NCBI GenBank assembly: GCA_030650425.1
Contig: JAUSED010000003.1
Location: forward strand, 7,903-71,902
Source of the DNA: Candidatus Omnitrophota bacterium
GTDB lineage: Bacteria; Omnitrophota; Gorgyraeia; Gygaellales; Profunditerraquicolaceae
DNA length: 64,000 nt
Direction: 5' to 3'
Within the stretch, counting starts at the first letter, position 1. Each line of letters opens with the position of its first letter. Positions 5,108-44,380 of this stretch are shown piece after piece. Position numbers and translations under genes: made by a program. Below the pieces are notes generated by a model that ran no database searches, had not been told where the DNA came from, and worked only from the letters and a program-made list of their open reading frames with translations.

Positions 5108-5137
5108 GAAGCAAAAGAGACATACCGCAATTGTAGT

Positions 5138-5242: not shown

Positions 5243-5254
5243 AGCATTGAGAAA

Positions 5255-6715: not shown

Positions 6716-6720
6716 AATAA

Positions 6721-7560: not shown

Positions 7561-10678
<3,118 letters not shown>

Positions 10679-13966: not shown

Positions 13967-14041
13967 CGAAACTGTTTCCAATTTGTGAGGGAAACTGTTT
14001 CCATTCCAAAGCGGAAACTGTTTCCGAGTCAATCGGGAAAC
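13967..14041. repeat. REP array 4: three units at 13967, 13990 and 14013, plus a degenerate fourth at 14036.
   Basis: 23-nt phasing. Linkers are aatttgtgag, attccaaagc and gagtcaatcg. Confidence 0.85.
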
Positions 14042-14457: not shown

Positions 14458-14458
14458 C

Positions 14459-18399: not shown

Positions 18400-18459
18400 A
18401 GGAAACTGTTTCCATTCCGTGAAGGAAACTGTTTCCAGCCCAATTGGGAAACTGTCCCC
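18378..18459. repeat. REP array 5: three units at 18378, 18401 and 18424, plus a degenerate unit GGAAACTGTCCCC at 18447-18459 abutting the RAYT stop.
   Basis: 23-nt phasing. Linkers are aatttgtgaa, attccgtgaa and agcccaattg. Confidence 0.9.
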
Positions 18460-18954: not shown

Positions 18955-19036
18955 AAGTCCACTTTCCCGATTGGCTCGGAAACAGTTTCCGCTTTGAGAT
19001 GGAAACAGTTTCCCGATTAGGATGGAAACTGTTTCC
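18955..19036. repeat. REP array 6: a degenerate unit at 18955 (gtccactttccc), then units at 18978, 19001 and 19024.
   Basis: 23-nt phasing. Linkers are cgattggctc, gctttgagat and cgattaggat. Confidence 0.9.
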
Positions 19037-22573: not shown

Positions 22574-22590
22574 TATAAAGTAAAATAAAG

Positions 22591-22695
22591 GAAACAGTTT
22601 CCAATCTGTGAAGGAAACTGTTTCCGGCTCAATCGGGAAACAGTTTCCGCTTTGGGTCGGAAACAGTTTCCGCTTTGAGATGGAAACAGTTTCCA
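22591..22695. repeat. REP array 7: five units at 22591, 22614, 22637, 22660 and 22683, between ldt and accA.
   Basis: 23-nt phasing. Linkers are aatctgtgaa, ggctcaatcg, gctttgggtc and gctttgagat. Confidence 0.9.
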
Positions 22696-22711: not shown

Positions 22712-23659
22712 ATGGCCGGATTAGAATTTGAAAAACCTATCGTTGAATTAGAGAAGAAAATCCAGGAATTAAGGCGTTTTATCTCGGATAAAAAAATAGA
22801 CCTTTCTTCAGAAGTCAAGCGCTTAGAGGATAAGCTCGAACATCTCAAGAAAGAGACCTACGCCAATCTTAGCGCCTGGCAGAGAGTCCAGCTTGCCCGC
22901 CATCCGCAAAGGCCCTACACCTTAGATTACATCAACCTGATTATGTCGGATTTTATCGAATTACACGGAGACAGGTTATTTAGCGACGACAAGGCCGTCG
23001 TCTGCGGTTTAGCTAAATTAGATCAGCAAAAAATAGCGGTAATCGGGCATCAAAAGGGAAGAGATACCAAGGAAAATCTGAAACGTAATTTTGGCTGCGC
23101 CCATCCAGAAGGATACCGCAAGGCGCTTCGGATTATGCAACTGGCCGAAGAATTTAATTTAGCGGTAGTGGTTTTCATCGATACGCCCGGGGCATACCCG
23201 GGAATAGGCGCGGAAGAGCGCGGCCAAGCGCAGGCCATCGCGCTTAATTTAAGGGAAATGGCTTCTATAGCCACGCCAATAATCTCTATAGTAATCGGAG
23301 AGGGAGGTTCAGGCGGCGCTTTAGGCGTAGGCGTGGCTGACCGCGTAGCCGTATTAGAGAATGCTTATTATTCGGTTATTTCTCCTGAAGGCTGCGCGGC
23401 AATCTTGTGGAAAGACGGAGCAAAGGCTCCTCAAGCAGCCGAGGTTTTAAAATTAACTGGAGATGATTTATTGGCTCTCAAGGTGATTGATGAAGTGATC
23501 CCTGAACCTTTAGGCGGCGCGCATCGGGACGCGCAGAAAACAGCCCAAGCTCTAAAAGAATACATAGTCAGGAACCTCAAGGAATTAAGAACCAACGATA
23601 AAGAAGAGCTGCTTAAGTTAAGGTATAAAAAATTCCGCGAGATGGGCTTGGTAGCATGA
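22712..23659 (+). CDS. accA: Acetyl-CoA carboxylase carboxyltransferase alpha subunit.
   Basis: Full-length AccA signature region FIDTPGAYPGIGAEERGQAQAIA. Confidence 0.9.
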   Translation: MAGLEFEKPIVELEKKIQELRRFISDKKIDLSSEVKRLEDKLEHLKKETYANLSAWQRVQLARHPQRPYTLDYINLIMSDFIELHGDRLFSDDKAVVCGLAKLDQQKIAVIGHQKGRDTKENLKRNFGCAHPEGYRKALRIMQLAEEFNLAVVVFIDTPGAYPGIGAEERGQAQAIALNLREMASIATPIISIVIGEGGSGGALGVGVADRVAVLENAYYSVISPEGCAAILWKDGAKAPQAAEVLKLTGDDLLALKVIDEVIPEPLGGAHRDAQKTAQALKEYIVRNLKELRTNDKEELLKLRYKKFREMGLVA

Positions 23660-24171
23660 TTGAGCAAGAATTATTATTATTAGGCTTGCTTAAAGAGGGC
23701 CCCAAGCACGGCTATGATATCAAAACCAAGATCAAACAGATCCTTTTTCTCTTTGCCGGCGTAGAATTAAAATCCATATATTATCCGTTACGCATATTAG
23801 AAAAAAGAGGCCTGGTAGCCAAACGGACGCTTAAACCGGGGAAGAGGCCTGAGCGCATGGTCTACGCTTTGACTGCTAAGGGGCAAGTCCGTTTTAACGA
23901 GCTTTTAAATAAAAGCCTGCTTAATCTTAGGAGGCCGCAGTTTAGCCTGGATTTGAGTTTGTATTTCCTGCATTATATGAAACCCAGCGTTGCCTCTCGC
24001 CGCTTACGCGCAAGATTACATATGTTGAATAAGGTATCGGGCGGTTTGGCGCAGATGGTTAAAACCTCTTCCAAGGCTAAAACCGCTTCCTTAAACCGCA
24101 TCTTGGAGCATAATTTTAGTCTGCTTAAAGCAGAGTCCCAGTTTATCTCGCAGTTAATTAAGGGAATGTAG
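23656..24171 (+). CDS. PadR-family transcriptional regulator.
   Basis: N-terminal winged helix LLGLLKEGPKHGYDIKTKI ... YYPLRILEKRGLV. Confidence 0.65.
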   Translation: MIEQELLLLGLLKEGPKHGYDIKTKIKQILFLFAGVELKSIYYPLRILEKRGLVAKRTLKPGKRPERMVYALTAKGQVRFNELLNKSLLNLRRPQFSLDLSLYFLHYMKPSVASRRLRARLHMLNKVSGGLAQMVKTSSKAKTASLNRILEHNFSLLKAESQFISQLIKGM

Positions 24172-24173
24172 AA

Positions 24174-24201
24174 GAAAAAGTGACTGTCACTTTTTCTTTT
24201 T
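24174..24201. terminator. Perfect palindrome GAAAAAGTGAC-A-GTCACTTTTTC followed by a T-run. Candidate bidirectional intrinsic terminator.
   Basis: 11-bp perfect stem read directly. It shares the GTGACNGTCAC core with the family-3 elements. Confidence 0.55.
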
Positions 24202-24203
24202 GC

Positions 24204-24232
24204 TTGACACCTCGAAATTTAAATAGTAAAAT
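24204..24232 (+). promoter_or_regulatory. Sigma70-like promoter TTGACA-17-TAAAAT.
   Basis: The -10 hexamer ends 6 nt before ATG 24239, so the transcript would be leaderless. Confidence 0.45.
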
Positions 24233-24238
24233 TTTACT

Positions 24239-24520
24239 ATGTCATTAAAGGAATATGCTATGGAATGGGAGAGCTCTACACAGGAAAAACTTAAAGCGAT
24301 GGTCGCCAAGATCCCTGTTTTTCACCGCCGTATTACTGAAGAGGTAGTGACTAAAGGCGCCGAAAAGAGCGCGCGGACAAGGAATTCCGCCAAAGTAGAA
24401 GAAATAGACGTGCTCACTGCTTTTTTTTCGGATGTCCCGGCCGCGTTTTACAGCATGATGGTCAGGCTCTTGGAGCAGAGCGGGTTTGATTACAAGAAAT
24501 ATGGATTTCCCAAGCGGTAG
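24239..24520 (+). CDS. Small hypothetical protein.
   Basis: 93-aa ORF. I recognise no motif. Confidence 0.4.
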   Translation: MSLKEYAMEWESSTQEKLKAMVAKIPVFHRRITEEVVTKGAEKSARTRNSAKVEEIDVLTAFFSDVPAAFYSMMVRLLEQSGFDYKKYGFPKR

Positions 24521-24529
24521 GTTTTTAAT

Positions 24530-25537
24530 ATGAAGATAGCGGTGATTGGCGCAGGAGCCATCGGGAGTTTAGTTGCCGGTTACTTAAAATTACAAGGCGA
24601 AGATATATACCTGGTTGGAAACCCTGAAGCGGTTAAGTCGGTTTCTGAAAACGGCTGTAAGATTTCCGGGTGCCGAGGCGATTTTAAGGTCGATATCAGC
24701 ATATTTGAGATGCTTGTTTCCAAGCCTGAGCTTGTGATCCTGGCGACTAAAACGCAGGATATCGAGAGCGCGTTAAAGAATAACCTTAGTCTGCTTAAAG
24801 ATACGATTATTTTGACCACGCAGAACGGAGTTCAGGCTGAAAGAATAGCAGCCGGGTTTCTTCCTCAAGACAATATACTTTCGAGCATCGTCATGTTCGG
24901 CGCCACTTATTTGGAAGCAGGTAAGGTTATTCATAATTTTGAGGGAAGCTGGATTTTAGGTAATTTATTTTCCGAAGCCCCTGACCCGCGGGTACTTTCG
25001 ATCAGTATGATTTTAGATAAGGCATTTTCTACGGTTGTAAGCGACGATATCGCGGGGATGAAATATTTAAAGGTATTCGTGAATGCCAATAATTGCATCC
25101 CGGCGATATTAGGGATGAGCATGCAAGAGGCTTTTAGTGACCCGCAAATAAGCAGGATAAGTGTTAACATTTGGAAAGAAGGTTTCCAGATCATCGCGAA
25201 GGCCGGAATTAAGCTTGTTTCTTTACCGGGCTTTCCGCTAGAAAACGTAACTCGGCTCATCTCTATTCCACCGGAAGAAGCAGCGAATATTTTCTCAGGG
25301 ATTATGGGTAAGTTAAGCCGCGACCCGCTCTATGGTTCAATATTGCAGAGTATAAAAAGGGGAAGGTCGTCGGAGATTGATTATATCAACGGAGAATTTG
25401 TCAGCTTAGCTGAAAAATGCCGTTTAAACGCGGGGTTAAATAAAAGATTGGTGGAAATGGTGCACGAAGTTGAGAAGACAAATAAATTTTTTACTAAAAC
25501 TGAACTTTTAAATGCCGTACAAGGATTAGTAAGTTGA
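24530..25537 (+). CDS. 2-dehydropantoate 2-reductase family (ApbA/PanE-like NAD(P)H oxidoreductase).
   Basis: N-terminal Rossmann motif MKIAVIGAGAIGSLVAGYL, and size and fold typical of ketopantoate reductases. Confidence 0.65.
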   Translation: MKIAVIGAGAIGSLVAGYLKLQGEDIYLVGNPEAVKSVSENGCKISGCRGDFKVDISIFEMLVSKPELVILATKTQDIESALKNNLSLLKDTIILTTQNGVQAERIAAGFLPQDNILSSIVMFGATYLEAGKVIHNFEGSWILGNLFSEAPDPRVLSISMILDKAFSTVVSDDIAGMKYLKVFVNANNCIPAILGMSMQEAFSDPQISRISVNIWKEGFQIIAKAGIKLVSLPGFPLENVTRLISIPPEEAANIFSGIMGKLSRDPLYGSILQSIKRGRSSEIDYINGEFVSLAEKCRLNAGLNKRLVEMVHEVEKTNKFFTKTELLNAVQGLVS

Positions 25538-25538
25538 A

Positions 25539-26135
25539 ATGGTTGGAATAAATTCACCTTTTCCAAGGCTAAAACTTACCGTGAATAACGTTTACGGCGA
25601 ATGTTACCACGGTTATCAGGCAGGCGATGAGATTCTCCTCGAAGATTTTACTCATCCACCCAAGCATTTTTGCTTGGGGTTAGCCCACGCGCTTTTTCCG
25701 GTGATCTACGCCTTGAGTTTCGGCGCTAAGTTTGGTTTTCGCGATAACCAACGTTCGCTTTTGGTGACTTGTCCTGACGGCGGAAAGTTAGAGTTCAAAG
25801 CGGAAATTTTGGATAAAGAGGGCAAGGTAGAAACTCTCCCTAAAGATGCAAATCATAAATTTAATCCCAAAAAGATGGTGATTGAAGTGGTACAAGCCAA
25901 AGGAAAATGCACCTTTGGCTATAAAGTCGGAGATCAATGGGAGACGCTCGGGTTAAAATGTATTCCCGGTTTTTGCGGGGCGGCATTTCATACCGCGTTC
26001 CCGGCGCTCTTTGCCTTAAATTTTGGCGCCAAGTTTTTCTTTATGCAGAACCCTAATTCTATTGATACGGTGGCTTGCCCTGACGGAGGGAATATCGTAT
26101 TTAAGGTAAGCAGGATCGAGGAAGATAAAAAATGA
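25539..26135 (+). CDS. Small protein with an internally duplicated Cys/His-containing domain.
   Basis: Two repeats of a ~90-aa module (...HFCLGLAHALFPVIYALSFGAKFGF...CPDGG / ...GFCGAAFHTAFPALFALNFGAKFFF...CPDGG). Translationally coupled to the downstream KS. Confidence 0.45.
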   Translation: MVGINSPFPRLKLTVNNVYGECYHGYQAGDEILLEDFTHPPKHFCLGLAHALFPVIYALSFGAKFGFRDNQRSLLVTCPDGGKLEFKAEILDKEGKVETLPKDANHKFNPKKMVIEVVQAKGKCTFGYKVGDQWETLGLKCIPGFCGAAFHTAFPALFALNFGAKFFFMQNPNSIDTVACPDGGNIVFKVSRIEEDKK

Positions 26136-27391
26136 ACAAACGTAGAGTAGTGATTACCGGAATAGGCGTGGTTTCGCCTAACGGCATCGGCAAAGAAAAA
26201 GTTTATCAGGCGATGTGCAATGGCGTCTCCGGAATAAGGCGGGTGGATGGTTTTGATGTCTCGGTATTTAACACTAAGATTGCCGCGGAAGTGCGCGATT
26301 TCGATCCGTTTAAACTTGGCCTTACCCACGAAGAGGCTGTACGCATGGATAGATATGTGCAATTTGGCGTGGTCGCCGGAAATATGGCTCTTTGCGACAG
26401 CGGTTTGGATCTGGCGAAAGTTGACCCTGAACGTATCGGCGTCTGTCTGGCTAATGCTATCTGCGGGACAAAATATATGGAAGAGGAGTTTGCCTTGGTA
26501 ACTTGCGACGGGAAGAACCCTATTGATCCGTCAAAGGTACGTCCTGACCTTTATGACGCGGCGATGTTTAATACCCCTTCTATTGAATTGTCGGCTAAAT
26601 ATCACCTTAAAGGAATATGCAATACGCTTTCTACCGGCTGCACAGCCGGCACTGATTCTTTGGGGTTCGGATTAGAGACGATTCAAGATGGAGAGCAGGA
26701 GATTATGATTTGCGGGGCGGCGGAAGCGCCGATTACGCCGATTACTTTCGGTGCCTTTGATGTAGTCAATGTTTTGTCGGTGCGCAATGATCATCCGCAG
26801 GCCTCAAGCCGTCCTTTCGATAATAAGCGCGATGGCTTTGTCCTAAGCGAAGGCGCGGGTATTTTAATTTTAGAAGAATTGAATCACGCCTTAAAACGGA
26901 ATGCCCGGATTTATTGCGAAGTTTTAGGATTTGGCACCAGTTGTAACGCCTTTCATATGACCGATCTTCCGGGCGATGGACAGGCGATGACTACTTGTAT
27001 TGTCTTGGCTCTCAAAGATTCCGGGATCAAGCCGCAGGAGATAGATTATATCAGCGCCCATGGCTCAAGCACGAAAATGAACGATATATTCGAGACCAAC
27101 GCCTACAAGGCGGTTTTCGGCGATTACGCCTATAAACTTCCGATCAGTTCGCTTAAGTCGATGATCGGGCATCCCTTGGCCGCATCCAACGCCGTGGAGA
27201 TGACCGTCTGCTCGATGATCTTCGAAAGAAACATCCTTCCGCCGACGATCAATCAGGATGAAAAGGACCCTTTGTGCGACCTGAATTATATTCCCAACCA
27301 AGCGATTAGCAAAAAAGTAGATACGATTATTAAAACCAGCTCCGGTTTTTCAGGGATTCATTCTTCGTTAGTTTTAAGGAGATATAAATGA
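26132..27391 (+). CDS. Beta-ketoacyl synthase (KS alpha, FabF-like) with an intact Cys-His-His triad.
   Basis: Active-site TGCTAG, with His in NAFHMT and His in KSMIGHPLAASNA. Confidence 0.9.
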   Translation: MNKRRVVITGIGVVSPNGIGKEKVYQAMCNGVSGIRRVDGFDVSVFNTKIAAEVRDFDPFKLGLTHEEAVRMDRYVQFGVVAGNMALCDSGLDLAKVDPERIGVCLANAICGTKYMEEEFALVTCDGKNPIDPSKVRPDLYDAAMFNTPSIELSAKYHLKGICNTLSTGCTAGTDSLGFGLETIQDGEQEIMICGAAEAPITPITFGAFDVVNVLSVRNDHPQASSRPFDNKRDGFVLSEGAGILILEELNHALKRNARIYCEVLGFGTSCNAFHMTDLPGDGQAMTTCIVLALKDSGIKPQEIDYISAHGSSTKMNDIFETNAYKAVFGDYAYKLPISSLKSMIGHPLAASNAVEMTVCSMIFERNILPPTINQDEKDPLCDLNYIPNQAISKKVDTIIKTSSGFSGIHSSLVLRRYK

Positions 27392-27398
27392 AAAACAG

Positions 27399-27475
27399 CG
27401 AAACTGTTTCCATCTCAATCGGGAAACAGTTTCCGAGCCAATCGGGAAACTGTTTCCGAGCCAATCGGGAAAGTG
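27399..27475. repeat. REP array 8: units at 27399, 27422 and 27445, plus a degenerate unit at 27468, between the KS alpha and KS beta genes.
   Basis: 23-nt phasing. Linkers are atctcaatcg, gagccaatcg and gagccaatcg. Confidence 0.9.
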
Positions 27476-27496
27476 GGCATAGGAGAGGGAGGCTGT

Positions 27497-28735
27497 GTGG
27501 ATAAAATAGCGATTACGGGTATAGGTATCGTCAGCCCTTCCGGGATAAATAAGCGGCAGTTCTGGGCGAATATCAAAGCCGGACGCTCTTTTATCAAAGA
27601 GATTACCCGTTTTGACGCCTCAAAATACCCGTCGCATATTGCCGGCCAAATCGACGAACTAAATAAATATAGCAATTTCTCTGAGCGCCTGCTTAAAAAA
27701 ATCGACGCCTTTTCGCATATGGCCTTGATTGCTTCAGAATTGGCCCTGCAGGACGCCGGGATCGATATCAAGAACGAAGACCCAAATTTAGTCGGAATAT
27801 TCTTAGGCAATGCTATCGGCGGATGGCTTTACGCGGAGACAGAACTGCGCGATTTATATATCGAAGGCCGCGAAGGCGTTTCTCCTTATATGGCTTCAGC
27901 CTGGTTTCCGGCGGCGCCGCAAGGGCAGGTTTCTATTTATTACGGGATTAAAGGATTCTCCAAGACGATTGTCGCGGATAGAGCCAGCTCTTTGATGGCC
28001 TTAGGTTACGGCCGGAAGGTTTTAAATAAGAATAAGTTGAATATGATTTTAGCCGGCGGGATGGAAGCGCCGGTGACCCCTTACGCGCTTTTATGCTGCT
28101 CTACTTACGGCGCGCTCTCCAAAAATAATGCCAAACCTCAGGAAGCCTACCGGCCATTTGACAAAAAACGCGACGGGTGCGTAATCGGAGAAGGCGCGGG
28201 TATCGTGGTGATGGAGAGTATCGCGCGGGCAAATAAAAGAGGGGTTAGGCCTTTGGCTTATATTTCCGGATACGCGGCAAGCTGCGACGGAGTTGACCGG
28301 ATCAACTGCGGCGCAGACGGGAAAGAATTAGCCAGGGCAATTAAATTAGCGCTATCCGATGCCCAAACCAATATCGACGAAATCGACTACATTAGCTTAG
28401 ACGGTTTGGCCTTAAATTTATGGGATGATGCTGAGTTGAATGCGCTAAAGAGTGTTTTTAGTCAGAGGGTTAAGGATATTCCAATAAGTTGCCCAAAATC
28501 TATGTTTGGAAATTTACTGGGCGCATCCGGCGCTGTAGATATGATTACGACAATCTTAGCGATGGAACATAGCCTGGTTCCGGTTACCTTAAATTTAGAC
28601 GAACCAAGTATAAAAGATTTTAATTATGTTACTAAAGAAGCTAAGGAATACAAAATCAATAAGGCTTTGGTGATTTCGCGCGGCAGGGGCGGGATCAATT
28701 CAGTGTTGGTAGTCGAGAGTAACACCCCGCGCTAA
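27497..28735 (+). CDS. KS beta / chain-length-factor-like partner: a ketosynthase fold lacking Cys and both His residues.
   Basis: Aligns to the upstream KS, but the active-site Cys aligns to R/D (VADRASS), His1 to Asp (ASCDGV) and His2 to Asn (MFGNLLGAS). GTG 27497 follows a GGAGAGGGAGG RBS. Confidence 0.75.
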   Translation: MDKIAITGIGIVSPSGINKRQFWANIKAGRSFIKEITRFDASKYPSHIAGQIDELNKYSNFSERLLKKIDAFSHMALIASELALQDAGIDIKNEDPNLVGIFLGNAIGGWLYAETELRDLYIEGREGVSPYMASAWFPAAPQGQVSIYYGIKGFSKTIVADRASSLMALGYGRKVLNKNKLNMILAGGMEAPVTPYALLCCSTYGALSKNNAKPQEAYRPFDKKRDGCVIGEGAGIVVMESIARANKRGVRPLAYISGYAASCDGVDRINCGADGKELARAIKLALSDAQTNIDEIDYISLDGLALNLWDDAELNALKSVFSQRVKDIPISCPKSMFGNLLGASGAVDMITTILAMEHSLVPVTLNLDEPSIKDFNYVTKEAKEYKINKALVISRGRGGINSVLVVESNTPR

Positions 28736-28823
28736 TAAGAGGTGCCCGGCGCAATAGGTATGCGCCGGCATGCGCTTGTGCGCAAATTGCGCGGGTGTGC
28801 CCTTGTGGGCTAGGAGAAATTTA

Positions 28824-30284
28824 ATGAAGATTTTATTTGTTATGCCAAAGGTGGGCAGTTGGGCAACGCACGGAAAGCATGTCGCGCCGAATCAATTATA
28901 CGCGCATTGGGCTAGCTATGTCAGGGAAAAAGGTTACGCGGATGTTTCGGTTATCGACGGCAAGGCGATGGAAATCCCCATGGACGAGATGGTCCAGATG
29001 GTCAAAGATAAAAATCCGGATGTCGTGGTTATGGGTGAGCAGCTGCATTCTTATGGTGGATACGGGGTTTTGCGCCATTTTAACGAAGCCTCCAGAAAAA
29101 TAAAAGCTGCGCTTCCTAAAACTAAGCTTATTTTCGGCGGGCTTTGGTATTCGGCGATGCCGACGCAGACCTTGGATGAGAATCCCGCGGTAGATTATAT
29201 AGTGATGGGAGAAGAAGAGTCGTTTTTTGATTTACTTGAGGCGATTGCCAAGAATAAGCCGATTAAAGATGTTGCCGGCGTAGCTTCGCGCGTGGATGGC
29301 AAAGCGGTTTTGGGTCCGCATAAGCCGCTATTACAAGATTTGGATTCTTTACCGCTTCCAGCCTATGATTTATTCCCAATGGATAGATATGTAGGCCATA
29401 CCCACTGGAAACCGTTTGTGGATATGGTTACTTCGCGCGGCTGTCCCTCAGCCTGCACTTTTTGTTATGAATGGGATCAGTATGATCCGCGCCACCCGTC
29501 GGATTTTCTTACTTGGCGGGCAAAATCTCCGGAGAGAGTGATTGAAGAATTGAACCTTTTACATAATAAATATGGGGTCAAGGTCGTAGTGATCCAAGAT
29601 GATAATTTCAATGTTGACCCGGCGAGGGTGCAAAAATTCTGTGAGCTAAAAAAAGCATCGAACAACCCGATTAAATGGGTCTCTTTAGGCAGGGCAGTGG
29701 ATTGGGTTAATTGTGAAAAGATCCTACCTTTAATGAAAGAGACAGGGCTATTCACCGGCGTCTTTGGGATCGAAGTAACTACCCCGGAGGAACTAAAAAA
29801 GATTGCCAAGGGGATTACCATTGAACAGATCAAAAAGACGATCGAAATCCTGCGTAAGAATGATATTGCCGTGGTGGCGGATATCATGATGGGTTTTGAT
29901 TATGATACCGAGGCGATTATCAAGCAAAGATACGAATTTACCGATATGGTTGACCCGGATATCCTTTGGATCGGCTATGTCACTCCCGCGCCGAACTCTC
30001 CGATGTGGAAGATGTCTTTAAAAAAGAATTGGATCGACCCTAAAAAAGTGGATTTTTCACAATGGGATTTCCTGCATCCGGTTATACCCACCGACCATTT
30101 GAGCATCGAAGAATTAGGCCGCCTTGGGTCTTGGTGTATGCGTGAATTCTTCTCCAAGCCCGGCAGGATTAACCGGATTATGGAGAGTGATTTCGATATT
30201 TTAGCTAAACTCTGTTTTCAGGATGTGATGGCCGGCGTCGGAAAATGGGAAGCAGGCGCGACTAAGGGGGAAGTGCACGTATAG
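28824..30284 (+). CDS. B12-binding-domain radical SAM enzyme (class B rSAM).
   Basis: N-terminal cobalamin-binding Rossmann-like domain, and radical SAM cluster motif RGCPSACTFC. ATG 28824 with an AGGAG RBS is preferred over track start 28770. Confidence 0.8.
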   Translation: MKILFVMPKVGSWATHGKHVAPNQLYAHWASYVREKGYADVSVIDGKAMEIPMDEMVQMVKDKNPDVVVMGEQLHSYGGYGVLRHFNEASRKIKAALPKTKLIFGGLWYSAMPTQTLDENPAVDYIVMGEEESFFDLLEAIAKNKPIKDVAGVASRVDGKAVLGPHKPLLQDLDSLPLPAYDLFPMDRYVGHTHWKPFVDMVTSRGCPSACTFCYEWDQYDPRHPSDFLTWRAKSPERVIEELNLLHNKYGVKVVVIQDDNFNVDPARVQKFCELKKASNNPIKWVSLGRAVDWVNCEKILPLMKETGLFTGVFGIEVTTPEELKKIAKGITIEQIKKTIEILRKNDIAVVADIMMGFDYDTEAIIKQRYEFTDMVDPDILWIGYVTPAPNSPMWKMSLKKNWIDPKKVDFSQWDFLHPVIPTDHLSIEELGRLGSWCMREFFSKPGRINRIMESDFDILAKLCFQDVMAGVGKWEAGATKGEVHV

Positions 30285-30299
30285 GTTAGCGGAGGGAAA

Positions 30300-30533
30300 A
30301 TGGATATAAAAATAAAAGTCAAAGAGATATTGAGTAATCTTCTAAAAGTAAAAATCGATGAATTAAAAGATAACTCTTCTCTAGAGGCAAGCATCGGAGT
30401 GGATTCTACCGAGATGGTCGAATCAGTGATTGCTTTGGAAAAGGCGTTCGGAGTAAAACTAAGTCCCAAAGAGATTACCAAGTCTTCGAGTATTGAAGAC
30501 ATTGAAAAAGTTATCCACTCAAAAATTGGCTAA
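30300..30533 (+). CDS. Acyl carrier protein.
   Basis: 77 aa with a phosphopantetheine-attachment Ser in GVDSTEMVESV. Confidence 0.8.
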   Translation: MDIKIKVKEILSNLLKVKIDELKDNSSLEASIGVDSTEMVESVIALEKAFGVKLSPKEITKSSSIEDIEKVIHSKIG

Positions 30534-31331
30534 ATGAAAATAATTGACCTAAGCCTTCCTATAGACGACAAGGCATTTGAGGTGCACAAGGTTGCTATTG
30601 AGCGGGTGACCCATCAAGCGGGTGTCGAGAAATTTAACCGCCTGATTATGGGTAAAACCCTGCTAGGTAAAATTAAATACCTTTTGGGCCAGCGTATTCT
30701 CAAAAAAGAAGATTTACCTGATGAAGAATTCCTTTCTTTGGAAATCGTGCACTCTCCGGTGCATATCGGCACCCACCTTGATTATTCTTTCCACTATGGC
30801 TCAACTTCTGAAGGCCGCCCGTCAAAGACAGCGGAAGAAATCCCGCTGGAATATTGTTATCAAGACGGAGTGAAACTCGAGCTTACCCATAAGCAGCCCA
30901 ATGAGAAGATTATCGCCGCGGATATCACAGCCGCGCTTACCAAGATTAATTATAAATTAAAACCCTTAGATATTGTTTTCCTGCATACCGGCGCGGATAA
31001 ACTTTACGGTTCTTCCAAGTATTTCTCGGATTATCCGGGCGTAGATACCTCGGCGATAGATTATCTATTGGACCGCGGGGTTAAAATCTTCGGCGTGGAT
31101 ACGATGGGCATAGACCGGCCGTATAGATTTATGCTGAAGGAATTTTTGGATAATAAAGACACGCAAGCTTTGTATCCGGCGCATTTTTACGGTAGGAAAA
31201 GAGAATTTATCCATATTGAGAGGCTGGCGAACCTGGAGAAACTTCCGGAAACCGGATTTAAGGTCATTTGTTTTCCGGTGAAAATTAAGAGGACCGGTGC
31301 TGCCTGGGCAAGGGTGGTTGCAATTATCTAA
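30534..31331 (+). CDS. Cyclase-family protein (PF04199-like; kynurenine formamidase / putative polyketide cyclase fold).
   Basis: Metal-binding motif SPVHIGTHLDYSFHYG. Confidence 0.6.
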   Translation: MKIIDLSLPIDDKAFEVHKVAIERVTHQAGVEKFNRLIMGKTLLGKIKYLLGQRILKKEDLPDEEFLSLEIVHSPVHIGTHLDYSFHYGSTSEGRPSKTAEEIPLEYCYQDGVKLELTHKQPNEKIIAADITAALTKINYKLKPLDIVFLHTGADKLYGSSKYFSDYPGVDTSAIDYLLDRGVKIFGVDTMGIDRPYRFMLKEFLDNKDTQALYPAHFYGRKREFIHIERLANLEKLPETGFKVICFPVKIKRTGAAWARVVAII

Positions 31332-31336
31332 AAAAT

Positions 31337-31367
31337 GAGGGACCGTTTCCTGAAAGGAAACGGTCCC
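31337..31367. terminator. Intra-cluster hairpin gagggaccgtttcc-tgaaa-ggaaacggtccctag.
   Basis: 13-bp stem with a 5-nt loop immediately after the cyclase stop. There is no T-run, so it is more likely an attenuator or processing structure than a terminator. Confidence 0.35.
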
Positions 31368-31386
31368 TAGATTCTAGGAGGCCATT

Positions 31387-31827
31387 ATGGGACATACCTG
31401 TAATTCAGTTATAATTAACGCGCCCTATGATTTAGTTTTTGATATTTCCAATGATATCCCCCGCTGGACGGAATTATTCGGGAGTGAATACAAAAAAGCA
31501 GAAGTGGTGAAGAAGGAAGCAAATAAAATTACCTTCCGCCTGACTGATGACGAAGGTAAGTCTTGGCAGTCATGGAGATTACTTTTTAAGCAGAATAATT
31601 TTACTTACGCCGAAAGAGAAGAGCCGAAATTCCCTTTTCAATACATGAAAATCATCTGGCTTTATACGCTTAAACCGGAAGGGGTGGAATTAACCTGGAT
31701 CCAGCATTTTGCAATGGATGCAAAAGCCAAATTCAACGATGAGCAGGTCGAAGGTTTTATTAATAAGCATTCTAAGGATAATCTTTTAATTTTTAAGCGG
31801 GTAATCGAGCAGGCAGCAGGTAAGTAA
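31387..31827 (+). CDS. SRPBCC / Bet v1-fold polyketide cyclase-dehydratase-like protein.
   Basis: At 146 aa the pattern is typical of polyketide_cyc2 aromatase/cyclases (INAPYDLVFDISNDIPRWTELF ...). Confidence 0.55.
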   Translation: MGHTCNSVIINAPYDLVFDISNDIPRWTELFGSEYKKAEVVKKEANKITFRLTDDEGKSWQSWRLLFKQNNFTYAEREEPKFPFQYMKIIWLYTLKPEGVELTWIQHFAMDAKAKFNDEQVEGFINKHSKDNLLIFKRVIEQAAGK

Positions 31828-31842
31828 TTCTAGGAGGTTAAG

Positions 31843-32619
31843 ATGAATGAGCAATTAAAAGGTAAGGTTGCGATTGTGACGGGCGCCAGCCGCGGCATAG
31901 GTAAAGCCTTGGCTTCTACAGCAGCAAGTTTAGGGATTAATCTGGCGATAGCCGCGCGTCAAGAAGGCCCATTAAAAGAAACAGCCGAGGAGATCGCCAA
32001 GAAATATAAAGTTACTGTTTTAGCTATCCCTTGCGATGTCACCAAACTCGAAGATTTAGAGAATCTGGTGAATAAAACCAAGGAGAAATTCGGTAGAATT
32101 GATATTTTAATTAATAATGCCGGGGTTTCCTCGCAATATCCGTTTCAGGAGCAGCCGATTGAGGATTTCGAACGGCTGGCCCACACAAATTATTTGGGTT
32201 ATGTGCGCCTGATCCGCTTAGTGATCAACGATATGATTAAAAATAAAAGCGGCGCGATTATCAACATGGTCTCCGGTTCAACCCTCTGCGACCCGCTTCC
32301 ACGGAATTTTATTGTTTATAGCTCGCTTAAAGTCGGCCTGCGCGCATTTTCCAAGGGGCTTTTTTGGGAATTACGCGACCACGGAATAAAGGTAACCTCT
32401 ATATTACCCGGAGTGACAGATACGGATTTGACCGGGAAATTAAAAGAAATTACCGCAGATACCTCGCGGCTAATGACCACCGAGGCGATTGAAAACGCGG
32501 TAAGGTTTGCTTTAACTGTGCCGCAGAATGTTTGCCCGTTAGAAATAGCAGTAATTAACCAGCAGACGCCTTGGACTGCTCCGGTTATTCCATTTAAGCA
32601 GCAGCATCCGGGCAAGTGA
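31843..32619 (+). CDS. Short-chain dehydrogenase/reductase (candidate ketoreductase).
   Basis: Cofactor motif TGASRGIGKALA, NNAG, and a catalytic YSSLK-type tetrad region. Confidence 0.85.
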   Translation: MNEQLKGKVAIVTGASRGIGKALASTAASLGINLAIAARQEGPLKETAEEIAKKYKVTVLAIPCDVTKLEDLENLVNKTKEKFGRIDILINNAGVSSQYPFQEQPIEDFERLAHTNYLGYVRLIRLVINDMIKNKSGAIINMVSGSTLCDPLPRNFIVYSSLKVGLRAFSKGLFWELRDHGIKVTSILPGVTDTDLTGKLKEITADTSRLMTTEAIENAVRFALTVPQNVCPLEIAVINQQTPWTAPVIPFKQQHPGK

Positions 32620-32659
32620 CAAAATATTAAATACAGGTAGAGCAAGAAAGGGGATAAAG

Positions 32660-33268
32660 ATGAAAAAAATATTTTTGGTAATAGCGTTATTCTTCGGCGC
32701 AATGGGGATAAGCTTTGCCGCAGCTGAAAATTTGTTAGTCGACGATTTTGAAATTAGCGTATCCAGCGGCCCGAACGGCACAGTTGATTTTGGCGCGGGG
32801 AATGGCTCTACTGTAAACGTTACCGCAGCTGCCGAAGTTAAAAATACCGGGAAGCAGGCCCTTAAGGTAGATTTTGACGCGGTTACCGGCGGCTATATGT
32901 ACGTTGCCCGGGGAGAAGGATTGGACGCTCATAATACCGGATGGTTGGTTAGTCCCGAGGATATCAAGTGGCATGATTATAAGGCATTTTCTTTCTACAT
33001 GTATGGCTCGGATTCCAAAGGTAAGGTAGCTTTTGATATTAAAGATAATGCTAATGAAGTTTGGCGTTTTATCGTTGAGGATAATTTTGAGGGCTGGAGG
33101 CAGATTATTTGTAATTTCGAGCAATTTACCGCCAGAGGAGATTGGCAGCCGCAAAACGCCGATAATAACGCTGTGCTTAATTTTCCGGTGAGGTCTTTTC
33201 AATTCGAACCGCTTCCTCCGTTAAAAGGGACCATTTATCTTGATACTGTGGAATTAGTTAAAAAATGA
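32660..33268 (+). CDS. Secreted hypothetical protein with a beta-sandwich-like sequence.
   Basis: Signal peptide MKKIFLVIALFFGAMGISFAAA. No recognised motif. Confidence 0.45.
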   Translation: MKKIFLVIALFFGAMGISFAAAENLLVDDFEISVSSGPNGTVDFGAGNGSTVNVTAAAEVKNTGKQALKVDFDAVTGGYMYVARGEGLDAHNTGWLVSPEDIKWHDYKAFSFYMYGSDSKGKVAFDIKDNANEVWRFIVEDNFEGWRQIICNFEQFTARGDWQPQNADNNAVLNFPVRSFQFEPLPPLKGTIYLDTVELVKK

Positions 33269-34197
33269 TCATTGACGCGCATAGCCATTGGCTGCCGGAA
33301 GAAATAATTTCCAATGCCCATTTTTTTTCCAAAAGCTGGGGTGAGATCGAGCATCAGCTTGAGGCAATGGATGAAGCAGGGATTGATCAAGCCGTTCTCT
33401 CATATCCTACTTCCGACGCCCATCTTAAGTTAGGGAGTATTTCACTGGTTGCCCGGATTTTTAATGATAATGTAGCCAAAATCCTCAAAAAATATCCGGA
33501 CAGATTTATTGGCGCGGCAGTCCTGCCAGTGGACAACGGGAAGGATATGCAAGAGGAGGCTAAGCGGGCTATAGAAAAACTAGGGTTTAAGGCCTTCTCT
33601 TTGGCGAGCAGCTACAATGCTGTATATCTGGACGATCAGATCTTCTTACCTATATATAAGCTGGCGCAGGATGAGCATATACCGATTTTTGTGCATTCTC
33701 AGATTGTTAAGCCCATTGGCATCGAGCGCGTAAACGACCCGCTGCTTACCCCGGTAATCGAATATGTTTTTGATATGACGGTGTGTATTGGTAAGCTGCT
33801 GATGTCGGATATTTTACGCGATTATAAAACGAAATTTATCTTTGCATCTTTTGGCGGGGTAATTCCGTTTATAGCGCATAGGTTTGACGCGACCTACCAG
33901 ATGCTGCGGGGGATTAATTTTGTCAAAGACCTGCAAGCAATGCCTACAGAATTATTGAAGTATATTTATGTGGATACCAGCGGAGATAAGACCAAGGCGA
34001 ATTTTCAGGCAGCCTTGGAGTTACTCGGGCCAAAACATATTCTCTGGGGAAGCGATTGGCCAGCCAAAAAAGATATCGCCGCAGGAATGCAGGCGGTTAA
34101 AAATTTAGATATATCTAACGAAGACAAGCATAATATTTTAGGCGGTAATTTAGAACAGTTCTTGAACAGTAGGGGACATTTTCCGTCAGGGCTCTAA
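33265..34197 (+). CDS. Amidohydrolase-2 family enzyme (ACMSD-type metal-dependent decarboxylase/hydrolase).
   Basis: N-terminal MIIDAHSHWLPEE and a TIM-barrel hydrolase pattern. The last ~8 codons and the stop are encoded within a family-2 repeat element. Confidence 0.65.
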   Translation: MIIDAHSHWLPEEIISNAHFFSKSWGEIEHQLEAMDEAGIDQAVLSYPTSDAHLKLGSISLVARIFNDNVAKILKKYPDRFIGAAVLPVDNGKDMQEEAKRAIEKLGFKAFSLASSYNAVYLDDQIFLPIYKLAQDEHIPIFVHSQIVKPIGIERVNDPLLTPVIEYVFDMTVCIGKLLMSDILRDYKTKFIFASFGGVIPFIAHRFDATYQMLRGINFVKDLQAMPTELLKYIYVDTSGDKTKANFQAALELLGPKHILWGSDWPAKKDIAAGMQAVKNLDISNEDKHNILGGNLEQFLNSRGHFPSGL

Positions 34198-34225
34198 GAG
34201 GAGCCTCAAAAGGAAAGTGTCCTCT
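34171..34225. repeat. Family-2 palindromic element copy B: AGGGGACATTTTCC - loop - GGAAAGTGTCCTCT.
   Basis: Diverged copy. The loop is gtcagggctctaagaggagcctcaaaa versus gtcagggcctaactagaacttcaaaa at 5178. Confidence 0.75.
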
Positions 34226-34261
34226 ACTGACTCAAACGGAAATTCATTAAGAGAAAACATT

Positions 34262-34636
34262 ATGACTAAATTTTTTAATTTGATTATCGGCGGGGCGGTG
34301 GGAACAATTGCCAGATATCTCTTGGCCGGTGTTGTGTATAGGTATATGGGGACGAGTTTTCCTTACGGGACGCTGATAGTAAATATTTCCGGATGTTTTA
34401 TCTTAGGGGTTTTGGCATCTTTGGCGGATAAGAAATTTATCCTCGGGCCTGACGCCCGAATTTTACTGATGATTGGTTTTTGCGGCGCGTTTACTACTTT
34501 TTCAACCTTGATCTTTGAGACGGATAATCTTGTCAGGAATGGCCAGGCAATGCGTGCTTTTACCAATATCTTTGTGAGCGTGATTTTAGGCTTTATTTTA
34601 TTTAGGGTTGGTTCTTTAATCGGCGAAATTATTTAA
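34262..34636 (+). CDS. crcB: Fluoride channel CrcB/Fluc.
   Basis: N-terminus NLIIGGAVGTIARYLLAG and four TM helices, about 124 aa. The track start GTG 34217 lies inside the repeat element; ATG 34262 is preferred. Confidence 0.8.
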   Translation: MTKFFNLIIGGAVGTIARYLLAGVVYRYMGTSFPYGTLIVNISGCFILGVLASLADKKFILGPDARILLMIGFCGAFTTFSTLIFETDNLVRNGQAMRAFTNIFVSVILGFILFRVGSLIGEII

Positions 34637-34649
34637 ATAGGGGGTAAAG

Positions 34650-34979
34650 ATGAAAATTCCTGCGGACGGTAAACTCTTAAGGATTTTTGTGGGCGAAGCG
34701 GATAAGTGGAATGGCAAGCCGCTTTATGAGGAAATTGTACTTTTGGCTAAAAAAGAAGGCTTAGCCGGCGCAACCGCGCTAAAAGGGTTTATGGGTTTTG
34801 GATGTAAGAGCCATATGCATACCGCCAACCTGCTTAGGCTCTCCGAAGACCTACCGATTATTATTGAAATCGTAGATAGCGAGGATAAAATTAACCGTTT
34901 TATACCGCAACTGGATAAAATGGTCAAAGAAGGTCTGATTACTCTGGAAAAGGCTAACGTAATTATGTATCGCGCGTAA
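34650..34979 (+). CDS. DUF190-family protein, commonly co-located with crcB.
   Basis: LRIFVGEADKWNGKPLYEEIV...GATALKGFMGFG is characteristic of DUF190. Confidence 0.65.
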   Translation: MKIPADGKLLRIFVGEADKWNGKPLYEEIVLLAKKEGLAGATALKGFMGFGCKSHMHTANLLRLSEDLPIIIEIVDSEDKINRFIPQLDKMVKEGLITLEKANVIMYRA

Positions 34980-34997
34980 AAATAAGGAGAAATAAAT

Positions 34998-35747
34998 ATG
35001 CAAATGATTAAAGATGTGCATTTGACAGGAAAAGATTTGACGGAGATGGTGCAGCTGAGGCCGCAGGATGTCGCTAAATATGCGATTGTCCCCGGGCCAA
35101 GGGATAGGCTGGATGTCTTAATCAAAAAGATAGAAAATCCGGTGCGTAATTTTTCATTCATGGAGTACACGATGTATACCGGGACCTACCAAGGAATAAA
35201 AGTAACCGCAATTAACGGCGGCAGGTTCTCAACGGATACCTCGATTACCACCGAAGTAATCTGTAACGCGAAAATTGAAAACATCATTCGTGTAGGCACC
35301 GCCGGCAGTTTGGATGAAAATATAAAAGTAGGGGATTTGTTCGTGGTGGATGAAGTAATTCGCGGAGACGGGGTTACGCCATATTACGTGGATAAGAATT
35401 TTAAGACCGTAGCGGATAAGCAAATCGCCGATACCCTCTATGGAATCGGTAAAGATATGGGCTTAAACATCCATCGGGGTAAGGCTTGGACTACGGACGC
35501 GCTTTTACGCGAGACCAGAGAAATTGTCGAAGCCAAGCGTAAAGAGGGGGCAAGGGCGGTTGATATGGTCTCTTCAACACTGTTGACCATTGCCCAGACT
35601 TATAATATTAAAGCCGGCTCAATTTTAGCGGTCAGTGATAATGTTATTACGGGCGAAATGGGCTTTATGAACCCCCTTTATTATATGGCGGAGTCAAATA
35701 TTTTGAAAATAGCTTTAGAGGCAGTGGTAAAATTAGAGGGAAAATGA
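34998..35747 (+). CDS. Nucleoside phosphorylase, PNP/UDP family 1 (candidate 5'-deoxyadenosine/MTA phosphorylase).
   Basis: The phosphorylase fold has RVGTAGSL at the phosphate site. Context with the isomerase and aldolase genes downstream supports the call. Confidence 0.6.
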   Translation: MQMIKDVHLTGKDLTEMVQLRPQDVAKYAIVPGPRDRLDVLIKKIENPVRNFSFMEYTMYTGTYQGIKVTAINGGRFSTDTSITTEVICNAKIENIIRVGTAGSLDENIKVGDLFVVDEVIRGDGVTPYYVDKNFKTVADKQIADTLYGIGKDMGLNIHRGKAWTTDALLRETREIVEAKRKEGARAVDMVSSTLLTIAQTYNIKAGSILAVSDNVITGEMGFMNPLYYMAESNILKIALEAVVKLEGK

Positions 35748-36670
35748 AATTTTCTCCGTTATTTTGGCCGATTCAGTTCAAGAATGGCGTAATTTATATC
35801 CTTGATGAAACTCTCCTTCCGCATAAGCTTGCCTATATAAAGGCCAGAAACTATCAGCAGGCCTGCCGCGCGATCAAAGAGATGAAGACCCGCGCCGTTG
35901 GGCAAGTGCTCTTAGTGATGTATATTTTCCTGCAGTTAATTAAGCAGAAAAAGCAGAAAGATTTAGCCAAAGTAACCAAAGCCATTAACGCCACCCGGCC
36001 AACCTTATCTTTTAAATTTTTAACCGACATGGTTTTAGGTTGGGCTAAAGGCAAGGCGCCTTTAGAAAAATGTATTTTAGGATTTTTGGAAGGATTAAGA
36101 TGCAGCCGTATTCAACAGGCGGAAGAAGCAGCTAAGTTAATTAAAAACGGTGATTGCATACTGACGCATTGCAATGTCAGCGGCCTTATGCCTTTGATTG
36201 GAGAAATTTGCCGTAAGCAGGGGAAGAAGGTAAGTTTCTTTACCACCGAGACCCGTCCGTATCTGCAGGGTTCACGTTTAACTGCTTGGGAATTGCAAAA
36301 CGCGGGATTTGAGGTAACGATCATCACCGATGGGATGGTCGCCGCGGTTATGTCGCAGGGTAAAGTGAACAGAGTCATTGTCGGAGCGGATCATTTGGCG
36401 CGAAACGGCGATATTGCCAATAAAGTCGGCACCTACGCCATCGCGGTATTAGCCAGGCATTTCAAGCTTCCTTTTTATGTTTTATGCCCGCCGGCATCGC
36501 AATTAAAGAGCGGCAAAGAGATAAAGATAGAAATCCGTCCGGATAAAGAAATGTTGGAGTATCAGGGATTGAGGCTTGCGCCCAAAGGCGTAAAAGGGTA
36601 TTATCCGGCATTTGATATTACGCCTAGTAAATTAATTACCAAACATATACCTTTGGAGATCAAAAGATGA
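35744..36670 (+). CDS. eIF-2B-like (e2b2) sugar-phosphate isomerase; MtnA-like 5-(methylthio/deoxy)ribose-1-phosphate isomerase.
   Basis: VIVGADHLARNGDIANKVGTYAIAVLARHFKLPFYVL is the hallmark of the MtnA / R15P isomerase family. Confidence 0.7.
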   Translation: MKFSPLFWPIQFKNGVIYILDETLLPHKLAYIKARNYQQACRAIKEMKTRAVGQVLLVMYIFLQLIKQKKQKDLAKVTKAINATRPTLSFKFLTDMVLGWAKGKAPLEKCILGFLEGLRCSRIQQAEEAAKLIKNGDCILTHCNVSGLMPLIGEICRKQGKKVSFFTTETRPYLQGSRLTAWELQNAGFEVTIITDGMVAAVMSQGKVNRVIVGADHLARNGDIANKVGTYAIAVLARHFKLPFYVLCPPASQLKSGKEIKIEIRPDKEMLEYQGLRLAPKGVKGYYPAFDITPSKLITKHIPLEIKR

Positions 36671-37668: not shown

Positions 37669-37678
37669 GAGGTAGGAA

Positions 37679-38476: not shown

Positions 38477-38489
38477 GGAGTTCAGGGGT

Positions 38490-44321: not shown

Positions 44322-44380
44322 GGAAACTGTTTCCAACTTGTGAAGGAAACTGTTTCCGGATCAATCGGGAAACAGTTTCC
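44322..44380. repeat. REP array 9: three units at 44322, 44345 and 44368.
   Basis: 23-nt phasing. Linkers are aacttgtgaa and ggatcaatcg. This is the last family-1 array in the window. Confidence 0.9.

Follow-up and report, generated by a model that had tools for sequence, protein, structure and literature searches.

We think it likely that a block of twelve genes in the chromosome of a Candidatus Omnitrophota bacterium constitutes an aromatic type II polyketide synthase (PKS) pathway of the 'ancestral' non-actinomycete kind, fixed in the chromosome. The block runs from 24239 to 34197 on the + strand of the stretch analysed here, a window of 64,000 nucleotides from contig JAUSED010000003.1 in which all positions are given, and + strand genes are uninterrupted over 24.2–34.2 kb. 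Aromatic type II polyketides are known almost entirely from aerobic actinomycetes, where they are dispensable antibiotics or pigments shaped by oxygenases. The Omnitrophota are an uncultured phylum of very small cells, apparently mostly anaerobic.

A first-pass annotation, made from the sequence alone, had recognized a type II PKS-like cluster of ten genes at 25539–34197. All the reading frames that it named were found on the + strand and where it had put them, and every one of its domain calls was reproduced with Pfam and NCBIfam models, on which domain identification here relies. Each of the ten genes has hundreds of homologs at 76–93% identity in other Omnitrophota, so that the reading frames are real, far beyond chance. 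The extent of the cluster, however, has to be moved upstream: the conserved unit begins at 24239, where a 93-aa gene and a PanE-like reductase precede 25539. The claim that many of the genes are translationally coupled holds for four junctions, which overlap or are 0–1 nt apart (PanE/TIGR04076, TIGR04076/KS-alpha, ACP/cyclase and CBM11/amidohydrolase), whereas the others have spacers of 15–85 nt.

The ketosynthase pair

The two ketosynthases (KS) at the center of the cluster, KS-alpha (26132..27391, +) and KS-beta or chain-length factor (CLF; 27473..28735, +), both consist of N- and C-terminal ketoacyl-synt domains. In aligned positions KS-alpha has an intact Cys-His-His triad (STGCTAG, SAHGS and MIGHPL). 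KS-beta has lost all three residues (VADRASS, SLDGL and MFGNLL), the Cys being replaced by an Arg that is preceded by Asp, one His by Asp and the other by Asn. Both states had been read correctly in the first pass. From homolog lengths of 408–412 aa, the true start of KS-beta is likely to be the GTG at 27497.

KS-alpha sides with the enzymes of aromatic type II PKS. Against solved structures, compared through the PDB, it scored 364 bits with the actinorhodin KS-alpha and 362 bits with AntD, the KS of a Photorhabdus anthraquinone pathway, as opposed to 337 bits with the best FabF, 238 bits with the ishigamide KS Iga11 and 272/200 bits with an unnamed heterodimeric KS pair (9s5h, possibly the anammox pair considered below). 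In a neighbor-joining tree of 29 sequences, it fell with 100% bootstrap support in a clade with actinorhodin KS-alpha, AntD and the KS-alphas of Clostridium beijerinckii, Ktedonobacter and Archangium, with FabF outside. The first pass had seen a grouping of the pair with FabF/FabB as the outcome that would speak against a type II PKS; KS-alpha groups with the type II PKS KS-alphas instead. Two other kinds of ketosynthase were considered and rejected: the cispentacin AmcF type (160 and 146 bits vs. a cutoff of 325) and the DarB resorcinol type, whose model gave only 18 bits.

The case for KS-beta comes from its relatives. Among 1.84 billion cluster representatives, its nearest single-domain relatives nearly all lack the Cys and mostly read Asp-Arg-Ala-Ser ('DRAS') at that place. 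Those that carry a name are from C. beijerinckii and C. puniceum (about 43–44% identity), Ktedonobacter, Archangium and metagenome-assembled genomes (MAGs) of Deltaproteobacteria (57%). In all the contexts fetched, the relative directly follows a KS-alpha and belongs to a cluster with an acyl carrier protein (ACP), a PF04199 cyclase and an SRPBCC cyclase. Since Asp-Arg at the Cys position is common to the CLF homologs of C. beijerinckii, Ktedonobacter and Archangium, it is a trait of the clade and no ground to exclude KS-beta as a CLF. The KS-CLF-ACP-TcmN-OxyN arrangement has been described as the ancestral non-actinomycete architecture, and the clostrubin CLFs, ClrB and ClrB_Cp, were placed in an ancestral clostridial clade (Ishida et al., 2020, PMC7693217).

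Carrier protein, cyclases and decarboxylase

The ACP (30300..30533, +; 77 aa, PF00550 at 42.6 bits) is free-standing and has a GVDST motif with the serine for phosphopantetheine attachment, as read from its sequence. It is followed by a cyclase of the PF04199 family (30534..31331, +; 93.7 bits), which keeps the HxGTHxDxxxH metal motif as HIGTHLDYSFH and is 47% identical to its counterpart in the Clostridium cluster and 38–40% identical to those of the Ktedonobacter and Archangium clusters. Cyclases of this family are metal-dependent, and we would label this one 'OxyN-type'.

The next gene encodes a single-domain SRPBCC protein (31387..31827, +; Polyketide_cyc/cyc2), for which membership of a lipid-transfer rather than a cyclase subfamily had been a concern. 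Its only PDB matches are the aromatase/cyclases WhiE (3tl1, E 3e-26) and TcmN (2rez, E 1e-23), with no lipid-transfer protein among them, and it keeps the equivalents of TcmN W28, F32, Y35, W63/W65, S67, R69, W108, Q110 and N136. The roles of these pocket residues in TcmN were reportedly established by Ames and colleagues in 2008. Together with KS-alpha and the contexts of the KS-beta relatives, this subfamily placement supports the type II PKS reading of the first-pass annotation.

The last gene of the block encodes an Amidohydro_2 protein (33265..34197, +; PF04909 at 87 bits) with an N-terminal HxH motif discernible in its sequence. The suggestion that it is of decarboxylase type agrees with its best PDB matches, 5-carboxyvanillate decarboxylase LigW (2.5e-19), ACMSD and gamma-resorcylate decarboxylase, which put it in the non-oxidative aromatic-acid decarboxylase group. 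This relationship fits the removal of a carboxyl group from an aromatic acid. A terminal decarboxylation has been proposed for the intermediates of dendrubin and pyxidicycline (PMC7693217).

Related clusters and the TIGR04076 pair

The cluster is of the known type II PKS kind, and its nearest studied relative is presumably the clostrubin (clr) cluster. The two Clostridium loci compared here (L004/L005) are from C. beijerinckii/C. puniceum, the producers of clostrubin, and presumably represent clr with ClrA/ClrB. Clostridium is an anaerobe. Seven families are shared with the window: KS-alpha (43% identity), KS-beta (43%), the PF04199 cyclase (47%), the SRPBCC protein (39%), the amidohydrolase (33%), the ACP and TIGR04076; in the CLF, moreover, Asp-Arg likewise replaces the active Cys. 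The Clostridium cluster differs in having no cobalamin radical SAM enzyme, PanE-like reductase, ortholog of the short-chain dehydrogenase/reductase (SDR) or 93-aa gene, and in possessing a KAS III, two FrsA-like hydrolases, two ACPS genes, and CMD, DUF362 and DUF169 genes. Upstream of its KS pair, at a distance of a few kb, is a DDE transposase gene; the Omnitrophota block, in contrast, has housekeeping genes around it.

Also related are clusters in Deltaproteobacteria (Desulfobacterota) MAGs (L002 and L003) and in MAG GCA_021812725.1 (L087), whose order is that of the window (ApbA-TIGR04076(x2)-KSa-KSb-ACP-cyclase-SRPBCC-...-Amidohydro_2) and whose proteins are 41–64% identical to those of the window, the amidohydrolase being at 48% in L002 and 43% in L087. 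L002 further shares the B12 radical SAM enzyme (51%) and a phosphorylase/isomerase/aldolase-SCP2 trio discussed below. It differs from the window in having the radical SAM gene upstream, in adding two aldehyde:ferredoxin oxidoreductases, an MFS transporter and an amine-oxidase-type flavoprotein, and in being without the SDR and the CBM11 protein. The two oxidoreductase genes of L002 are at 4851–6824 and 14177–16156, the flavoprotein is where the Omnitrophota have the SDR, and there are hints of a carboxylate-to-aldehyde reduction in this variant. In L087 the TIGR04076 halves are separate genes, and an FMN_red gene and two amine oxidases are present.

Compared with the minimal PKS of actinobacteria (actinorhodin, 1TQY; TcmN; WhiE), the window likewise has a KS/CLF pair, a discrete ACP and a single-domain aromatase/cyclase, but no evident ActIII-type ketoreductase, and no oxygenase or O-methyltransferase. 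Its tailoring set is of an anaerobic type instead (B12 radical SAM, TIGR04076). The departures from the systems described so far are the TIGR04076 pair, the BchE-like cobalamin radical SAM enzyme, and the combination of a decarboxylase-type amidohydrolase with a PanE-type reductase.

The first of these departures deserves comment. The gene at 25539..26135 (+; 198 aa, TIGR04076 at 95 bits), which had been noted as an internally duplicated Cys/His small protein, consists of two TIGR04076 domains fused in tandem. Both contain an invariant Cys-Cys-His-Cys set, suggestive of a bound metal or cofactor. A TIGR04076 pair accompanies this PKS subtype in four lineages, namely, the window, L002, L087 and L004/L005. 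The halves are fused to each other in the window and the Deltaproteobacteria MAG; in Clostridium one copy forms the N-terminal part of a fusion with an ACP domain, and the other is a gene of its own. In L004 these are a 175-aa TIGR04076-ACP fusion that follows the CLF, with no recorded Pfam hit (11260–11787), and a 96-aa TIGR04076 gene (15656–15946); L005 is organized likewise. No TIGR04076 gene was found in the Ktedonobacter and Archangium clusters. The latter two are aerobic, and the four TIGR04076-bearing lineages are all presumably anaerobic. The TIGR04076 pair is a hallmark of this PKS subtype, which we propose to define by two TIGR04076 domains and Amidohydro_2 alongside KSa-KSb-ACP-PF04199-SRPBCC. 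The window, L002, L087 and L004/L005 have this gene set; the Ktedonobacter and Archangium clusters do not. Our literature searches yielded no tie of TIGR04076 to polyketide synthesis (only two papers mention the family, neither on polyketides) and nothing on the TIGR04076-ACP fusion of the presumed clostrubin cluster.

Conservation across Omnitrophota

The cluster is not peculiar to one genome. When one genome per GTDB species was scanned, at least 524 genomes had a relative of KS-beta. The best 80 loci, which were examined, were all from Omnitrophota, and gene order was the same in 80 of 80 wherever the contig reaches, no rearrangement being seen within the block: 93aa-PanE-TIGR04076x2-KSa-KSb-rSAM-ACP-cyclase-SRPBCC-SDR-(CBM11)-amidohydrolase, where rSAM is the radical SAM enzyme and CBM11 is variable. 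In some of these loci short contigs cut the block off. Fourteen of the loci, with the same syntenic cluster and KS-beta identities of 77–81%, come from genomes titled 'uncultured Planctomycetales bacterium' (L016–L018, L024, L026, L033, L034, L037, L038, L044, L067, L074, L080 and L085). These are probably Omnitrophota under an outdated or wrong NCBI label. Exact-sequence look-ups of the window KS-alpha and KS-beta gave no match; the TIGR04076 protein is 100% identical to a protein of an NCBI Omnitrophota MAG, and homologs of it and of KS-beta at 80–100% identity bear the names Candidatus Omnitrophota or Omnitrophica. As the searches were saturated by Omnitrophota sequences at 76% identity or more, the spread outside the phylum rests on five contexts (L002, L004/5, L087, L088 and L089).

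The degree of conservation is high. Mean pairwise identity among 24 species genomes, which represent one sub-lineage, is 84.6% for KS-alpha, 81.8% for KS-beta, 89.6% for the radical SAM enzyme and 84.4% for the TIGR04076 fusion, as against 80.4% for AccA, which is physically linked to the cluster. KS-beta and AccA distances in these genomes are correlated (r = 0.87, Mantel p = 0.001). By identity, conservation of the cluster is at the housekeeping level, equal to or above that of AccA. The surroundings are those of an ordinary chromosome as well: the rest of the window has genes for ATP synthase, type II secretion/pilus proteins, LeuRS, FeoB, RlmN and PurU, and GC content is even across the window, the cluster being the same as the rest. 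The fixed, vertically inherited and strongly constrained state across a candidate phylum is a further departure from described systems.

That KS-CLF pairs exist in Candidatus Omnitrophica has been on record since a 2023 catalog of type II PKS, which lists them without analysis of cluster content, conservation or product (PMC10132072). The view that such systems are rare outside Actinobacteria, expressed in the first pass, is therefore dated. Targeted literature searches for Omnitrophota with ketosynthase or biosynthetic gene cluster gave nothing relevant.

Tailoring enzymes and adjacent salvage genes

Two reductases are encoded in the block. The ApbA/PanE-family NAD(P)H ketoreductase (24530..25537, +; PF02558 and PF08546, TIGR00745 at 166 bits) has orthologs that adjoin the KS pair in L002 (51%) and L087 (41%). 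The classical SDR oxidoreductase (31843..32619, +; adh_short at 179 bits) has generic best matches in the PDB (clavaldehyde dehydrogenase, gluconate 5-dehydrogenase, FabG), with no PKS ketoreductase among those at E<=1e-25, and no ortholog in L002, L004 or L087. The label 'KR' that had been given to it, in the sense of a C-9 ketoreductase, is not justified by these matches. No other cluster gene of the Omnitrophota has as high a median identity to its counterpart in the window (89%).

The cobalamin-binding radical SAM enzyme (28770..30284, +; PF02310 at 42.5 bits, PF04055 at 78.5 bits) is of the class B type and shows the CxxxCxxC motif as GCPSACTFC. Homologs of 486 aa make the ATG at 28824 its likely true start. 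Of the curated models, BchE (207 bits) and HpnJ (152 bits) came closest, ahead of the methylase models (74–109 bits), all being below cutoff; its PDB matches, AprD4 and TokK, are weak. The B12-binding radical SAM assignment of the first pass is thus sound, but C-methyltransferase is only one option, since BchE and HpnJ are nearer than the characterized C-methylases. Judging from these similarities, the enzyme could catalyze a methylation, or a BchE-like oxygen-independent oxidation or cyclization.

In most Omnitrophota loci the cluster is followed by a trio of genes, in the window a nucleoside phosphorylase (34998–35747, +; PF01048), an MtnA-like sugar-1-phosphate isomerase (35744–36670, +; PF01008, TIGR00524 at 195 bits, above cutoff) and a class II aldolase fused to SCP2 (36667–37668, +; PF00596 and PF02036). 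In L083 the trio lies upstream, still next to the cluster, and in L002 it is again downstream, so that its synteny with the PKS extends over two phyla. These are also the three families of the DHAP shunt, a route for the removal of 5'-deoxyadenosine, an inhibitory by-product of radical SAM enzymes (PMC6079011, PMC10986504). As in that shunt or 5-deoxyribose salvage, a PNP_UDP_1 phosphorylase/nucleosidase, an MtnA-type isomerase and a class II aldolase stand in a row. Unlike there, none of the three reaches an equivalog cutoff (the eIF-2B_rel subfamily model alone passes its own, and the matches of the phosphorylase and the aldolase stay below theirs), the phosphorylase is nearer to the uridine/DeoD type, and the aldolase has the C-terminal SCP2. 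By analogy, and as the conservative view, the trio would most likely serve 5'-deoxyadenosine salvage in support of the cluster radical SAM enzyme. Next to the trio in the window are a DhnA-type aldolase (LsrF equivalog, 356 bits, above cutoff), a Zn-alcohol dehydrogenase and an aldehyde dehydrogenase. The whole span (34998–40987) looks like 5'-deoxynucleoside salvage of the DHAP-shunt type with downstream aldehyde handling.

Proposed pathway and alternatives

From the identities, motifs, placement, synteny and conservation of the genes a pathway can be outlined, in which the heterodimer, the chemical steps and the product are all deduced. KS-alpha and the Cys-less KS-beta would form a heterodimer that assembles malonyl units into an unreduced poly-beta-keto chain on the free-standing ACP. 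The TcmN/WhiE-type aromatase/cyclase would close and aromatize the first ring, and the PF04199 cyclase a further ring. The LigW/ACMSD-like amidohydrolase would take a carboxyl off the aromatic acid, and the PanE-like reductase and the SDR would reduce carbonyl groups. The cobalamin radical SAM enzyme would carry out an oxygen-independent C-H functionalization, either methylation or BchE-like oxidation or cyclization, while the trio would most likely clear the 5'-deoxyadenosine that it produces. The paired TIGR04076 domains may be a metal- or cofactor-binding accessory acting with the ACP.

Several observations weigh against this pathway. Taken on its own, KS-beta scores higher with FabF (266 bits) than with the actinorhodin CLF (235 bits). 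It also does not have the canonical CLF glutamine, as the first pass had noted, but Arg preceded by Asp, so that the priming chemistry may differ. Canonical actinobacterial CLFs have a conserved Gln at the position of the KS Cys. The tree of ketosynthases did not include the actinorhodin CLF, AntE, the aryl-polyene pair ApeO/ApeC, Iga12 or the anammox pair, and the SDR does not look like a C-9 ketoreductase of the ActIII type. The block has no gene for a phosphopantetheinyl transferase, malonyl transferase, exporter or resistance function, and conservation at the housekeeping level is atypical for a secondary-metabolite cluster. Lastly, L004/L005 are equated with clr from the species and from the mention of ClrB and ClrB_Cp (PMC7693217), not from an accession match.

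The conservation leads to a reading that refines the aromatic PKS pathway rather than excluding it: the product may be a redox-active aromatic polyketide, such as a quinone or polyphenol, conserved in the manner of primary metabolism and serving not as an antibiotic but, for instance, as an electron carrier of the membrane, a pigment for oxygen defence or a cofactor. The best 80 species genomes show one and the same gene order, and the enzymes of the cluster exceed AccA in conservation while their divergence keeps pace with that of AccA; the comparator, however, is linked to the cluster, and the 80 loci are the best of at least 524 genomes rather than all Omnitrophota. A cluster that shows no compositional sign of recent transfer and sits among housekeeping genes is in keeping with such a role, as is a radical SAM enzyme nearest to BchE, the anaerobic oxidative cyclase, which could provide oxygen-independent oxidation or cyclization. 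There are also precedents of function: in 2015 Shabuer and colleagues reportedly found that clostrubin helps anaerobes tolerate oxygen, and Anand and colleagues are said to have found that mycobacterial polyketide quinones act as alternative electron carriers. But no prenyltransferase or membrane-anchoring enzyme is encoded in or near the block, and we hold this more specific proposal only tentatively, as rather unlikely.

A different view is that the system is a reducing, fatty-acid-like one (ladderane-, aryl-polyene-, ishigamide- or alkylresorcinol-like), in which a lipid built by the KS/CLF is altered by the radical SAM enzyme. The anammox ladderane 'Cluster I' offers a parallel, with an amxFabF2/amxFabF-mut heterodimer and radical SAM genes nearby (bioRxiv 10.64898/2026.05.19.726425). 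It resembles the window in that an anaerobe combines an active KS and its triad-less paralog with a dedicated ACP and with radical SAM enzymes; compared by description, it differs in being fatty-acid-like, with FabZ and without aromatase/cyclase genes. The best score of KS-beta with FabF, the presence of two reductases, the SCP2 lipid-binding domain on the nearby aldolase and accA upstream in many loci could all be accommodated by a lipid pathway. However, none of the genes of 24239–34197 encodes a FabZ/FabA/ApeI-P-type dehydratase or an enoyl reductase, the block has a TcmN/WhiE aromatase/cyclase with intact pocket residues as well as a PF04199 cyclase, and KS-alpha goes with the aromatic enzymes in the tree and scores lower with Iga11 and 9s5h than with actinorhodin KS-alpha. 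Gene content thus lends no support to the aryl-polyene or resorcinol-lipid product that the first pass had kept as an alternative (the low DarB score included), and we consider a reducing system improbable.

That the two KS are ordinary FabF/FabB housekeeping paralogs among unrelated neighbors is hardly credible, in spite of strong matches to the TIGR03150 FabF model (445 and 359 bits) and accA nearby, because both scores fall short of the 494 bits at which the FabF equivalog cutoff is set, KS-beta is without a catalytic triad, the tree sets KS-alpha apart from FabF, and the order of the twelve genes does not vary among 80 species and is seen again in other phyla.

Within the reading of a product akin to a primary metabolite, a bolder and speculative variant follows the logic of HpnH/HpnG and MqnE/MqnB. 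By that analogy, the radical SAM enzyme would adenosylate the polyketide, and the trio would trim the ribose to a two-carbon aldehyde side chain.

Other features of the region

The 93-aa protein of the first gene of the block (24239..24520, +) is encoded directly upstream of PanE in 61 loci, and is found even in loci without accA and PadR, but no homolog was detected in L002, L004 or L087–L089. It has a faint similarity (E 0.002–0.006) to DUF2621 and PCP_red. The latter is the domain of protochlorophyllide reductase subunit B, a curious likeness beside a BchE-like radical SAM enzyme.

The CBM11-like protein (32660..33268, +; PF03425 at 69 bits) has a signal-peptide-like N-terminus, in line with its earlier description as secreted. 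It is the least conserved of the block (median identity 61%) and its gene was detected in 30 of the 80 loci, the amidohydrolase just downstream being shown in 48. It is a variable passenger.

A PadR-family gene (23656..24171, +; PF03551 PadR in the identical gene of L006 and in L001) precedes the block, as it directly does in 37 of the 80 Omnitrophota loci, and we regard its product as a candidate regulator of the cluster. Between the two is a promoter-like site, TTGACA-17-TAAAAT (24204..24232, +), with 11 of 12 matches to consensus, the best + strand site in 23500–38600. As the total number of such sites is not above shuffle expectation, and promoter and terminator scans of the region are overall at background level, the site is only suggestive of a promoter for the block.

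The gap between KS-alpha and KS-beta is occupied by an insertion that is outside the pathway, an array of three GGAAACWGTTTCC palindromes with a 23-bp period (27399..27457). The close relative L001 has no such array at this place, its KS-alpha and KS-beta genes overlapping. The 13-bp palindrome occurs 35 times in the window, as against 0.06 expected, in arrays of 3–5 copies with an exact 23-bp period and variable 10-bp spacers (1361–1465, 7563–7667, 10680–10784, 13967–14025, 18378–18436, 18978–19036, 22590–22694, 27399–27457 and 44322–44380). The arrays are mostly between predicted genes, two running into the start or end of a listed reading frame. A two-copy pattern is nearly absent from 86 other loci, with one match, in L084, and the arrays look like a genome-specific miniature repeat or hairpin array. 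A perfect hairpin with a 14-bp stem, AGGGACCGTTTCC TTTCA GGAAACGGTCCCT, lies at 31338–31368 in the 55-nt spacer between the cyclase and SRPBCC genes, and its core resembles the dispersed palindrome.

Implications

The same gene order in at least 80 species and conservation at the level of acetyl-CoA carboxylase point to a product on which the cells depend. The subtype, with its TIGR04076 pair, decarboxylase-type amidohydrolase and sometimes a B12 radical SAM enzyme, is so far confined to apparently anaerobic lineages, and gives a concrete system in which to study the oxygen-free tailoring of aromatic polyketides. At about 10 kb, the cluster is compact and suitable for heterologous expression. 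The uncharacterized TIGR04076 family, for its part, gains a first pathway context. Speculatively, and at long odds, one may go further and envisage a vertically inherited, oxygen-independent type II PKS in the Omnitrophota and other presumed anaerobes, the aromatic product of which would be akin to a primary metabolite, an electron carrier or a means of oxygen defence. If that were true, a TIGR04076 pair as the obligatory partner of an ACP, and a BchE-like cobalamin radical SAM enzyme that replaces oxygenases in ring oxidation or cyclization, would both be new to polyketide enzymology.

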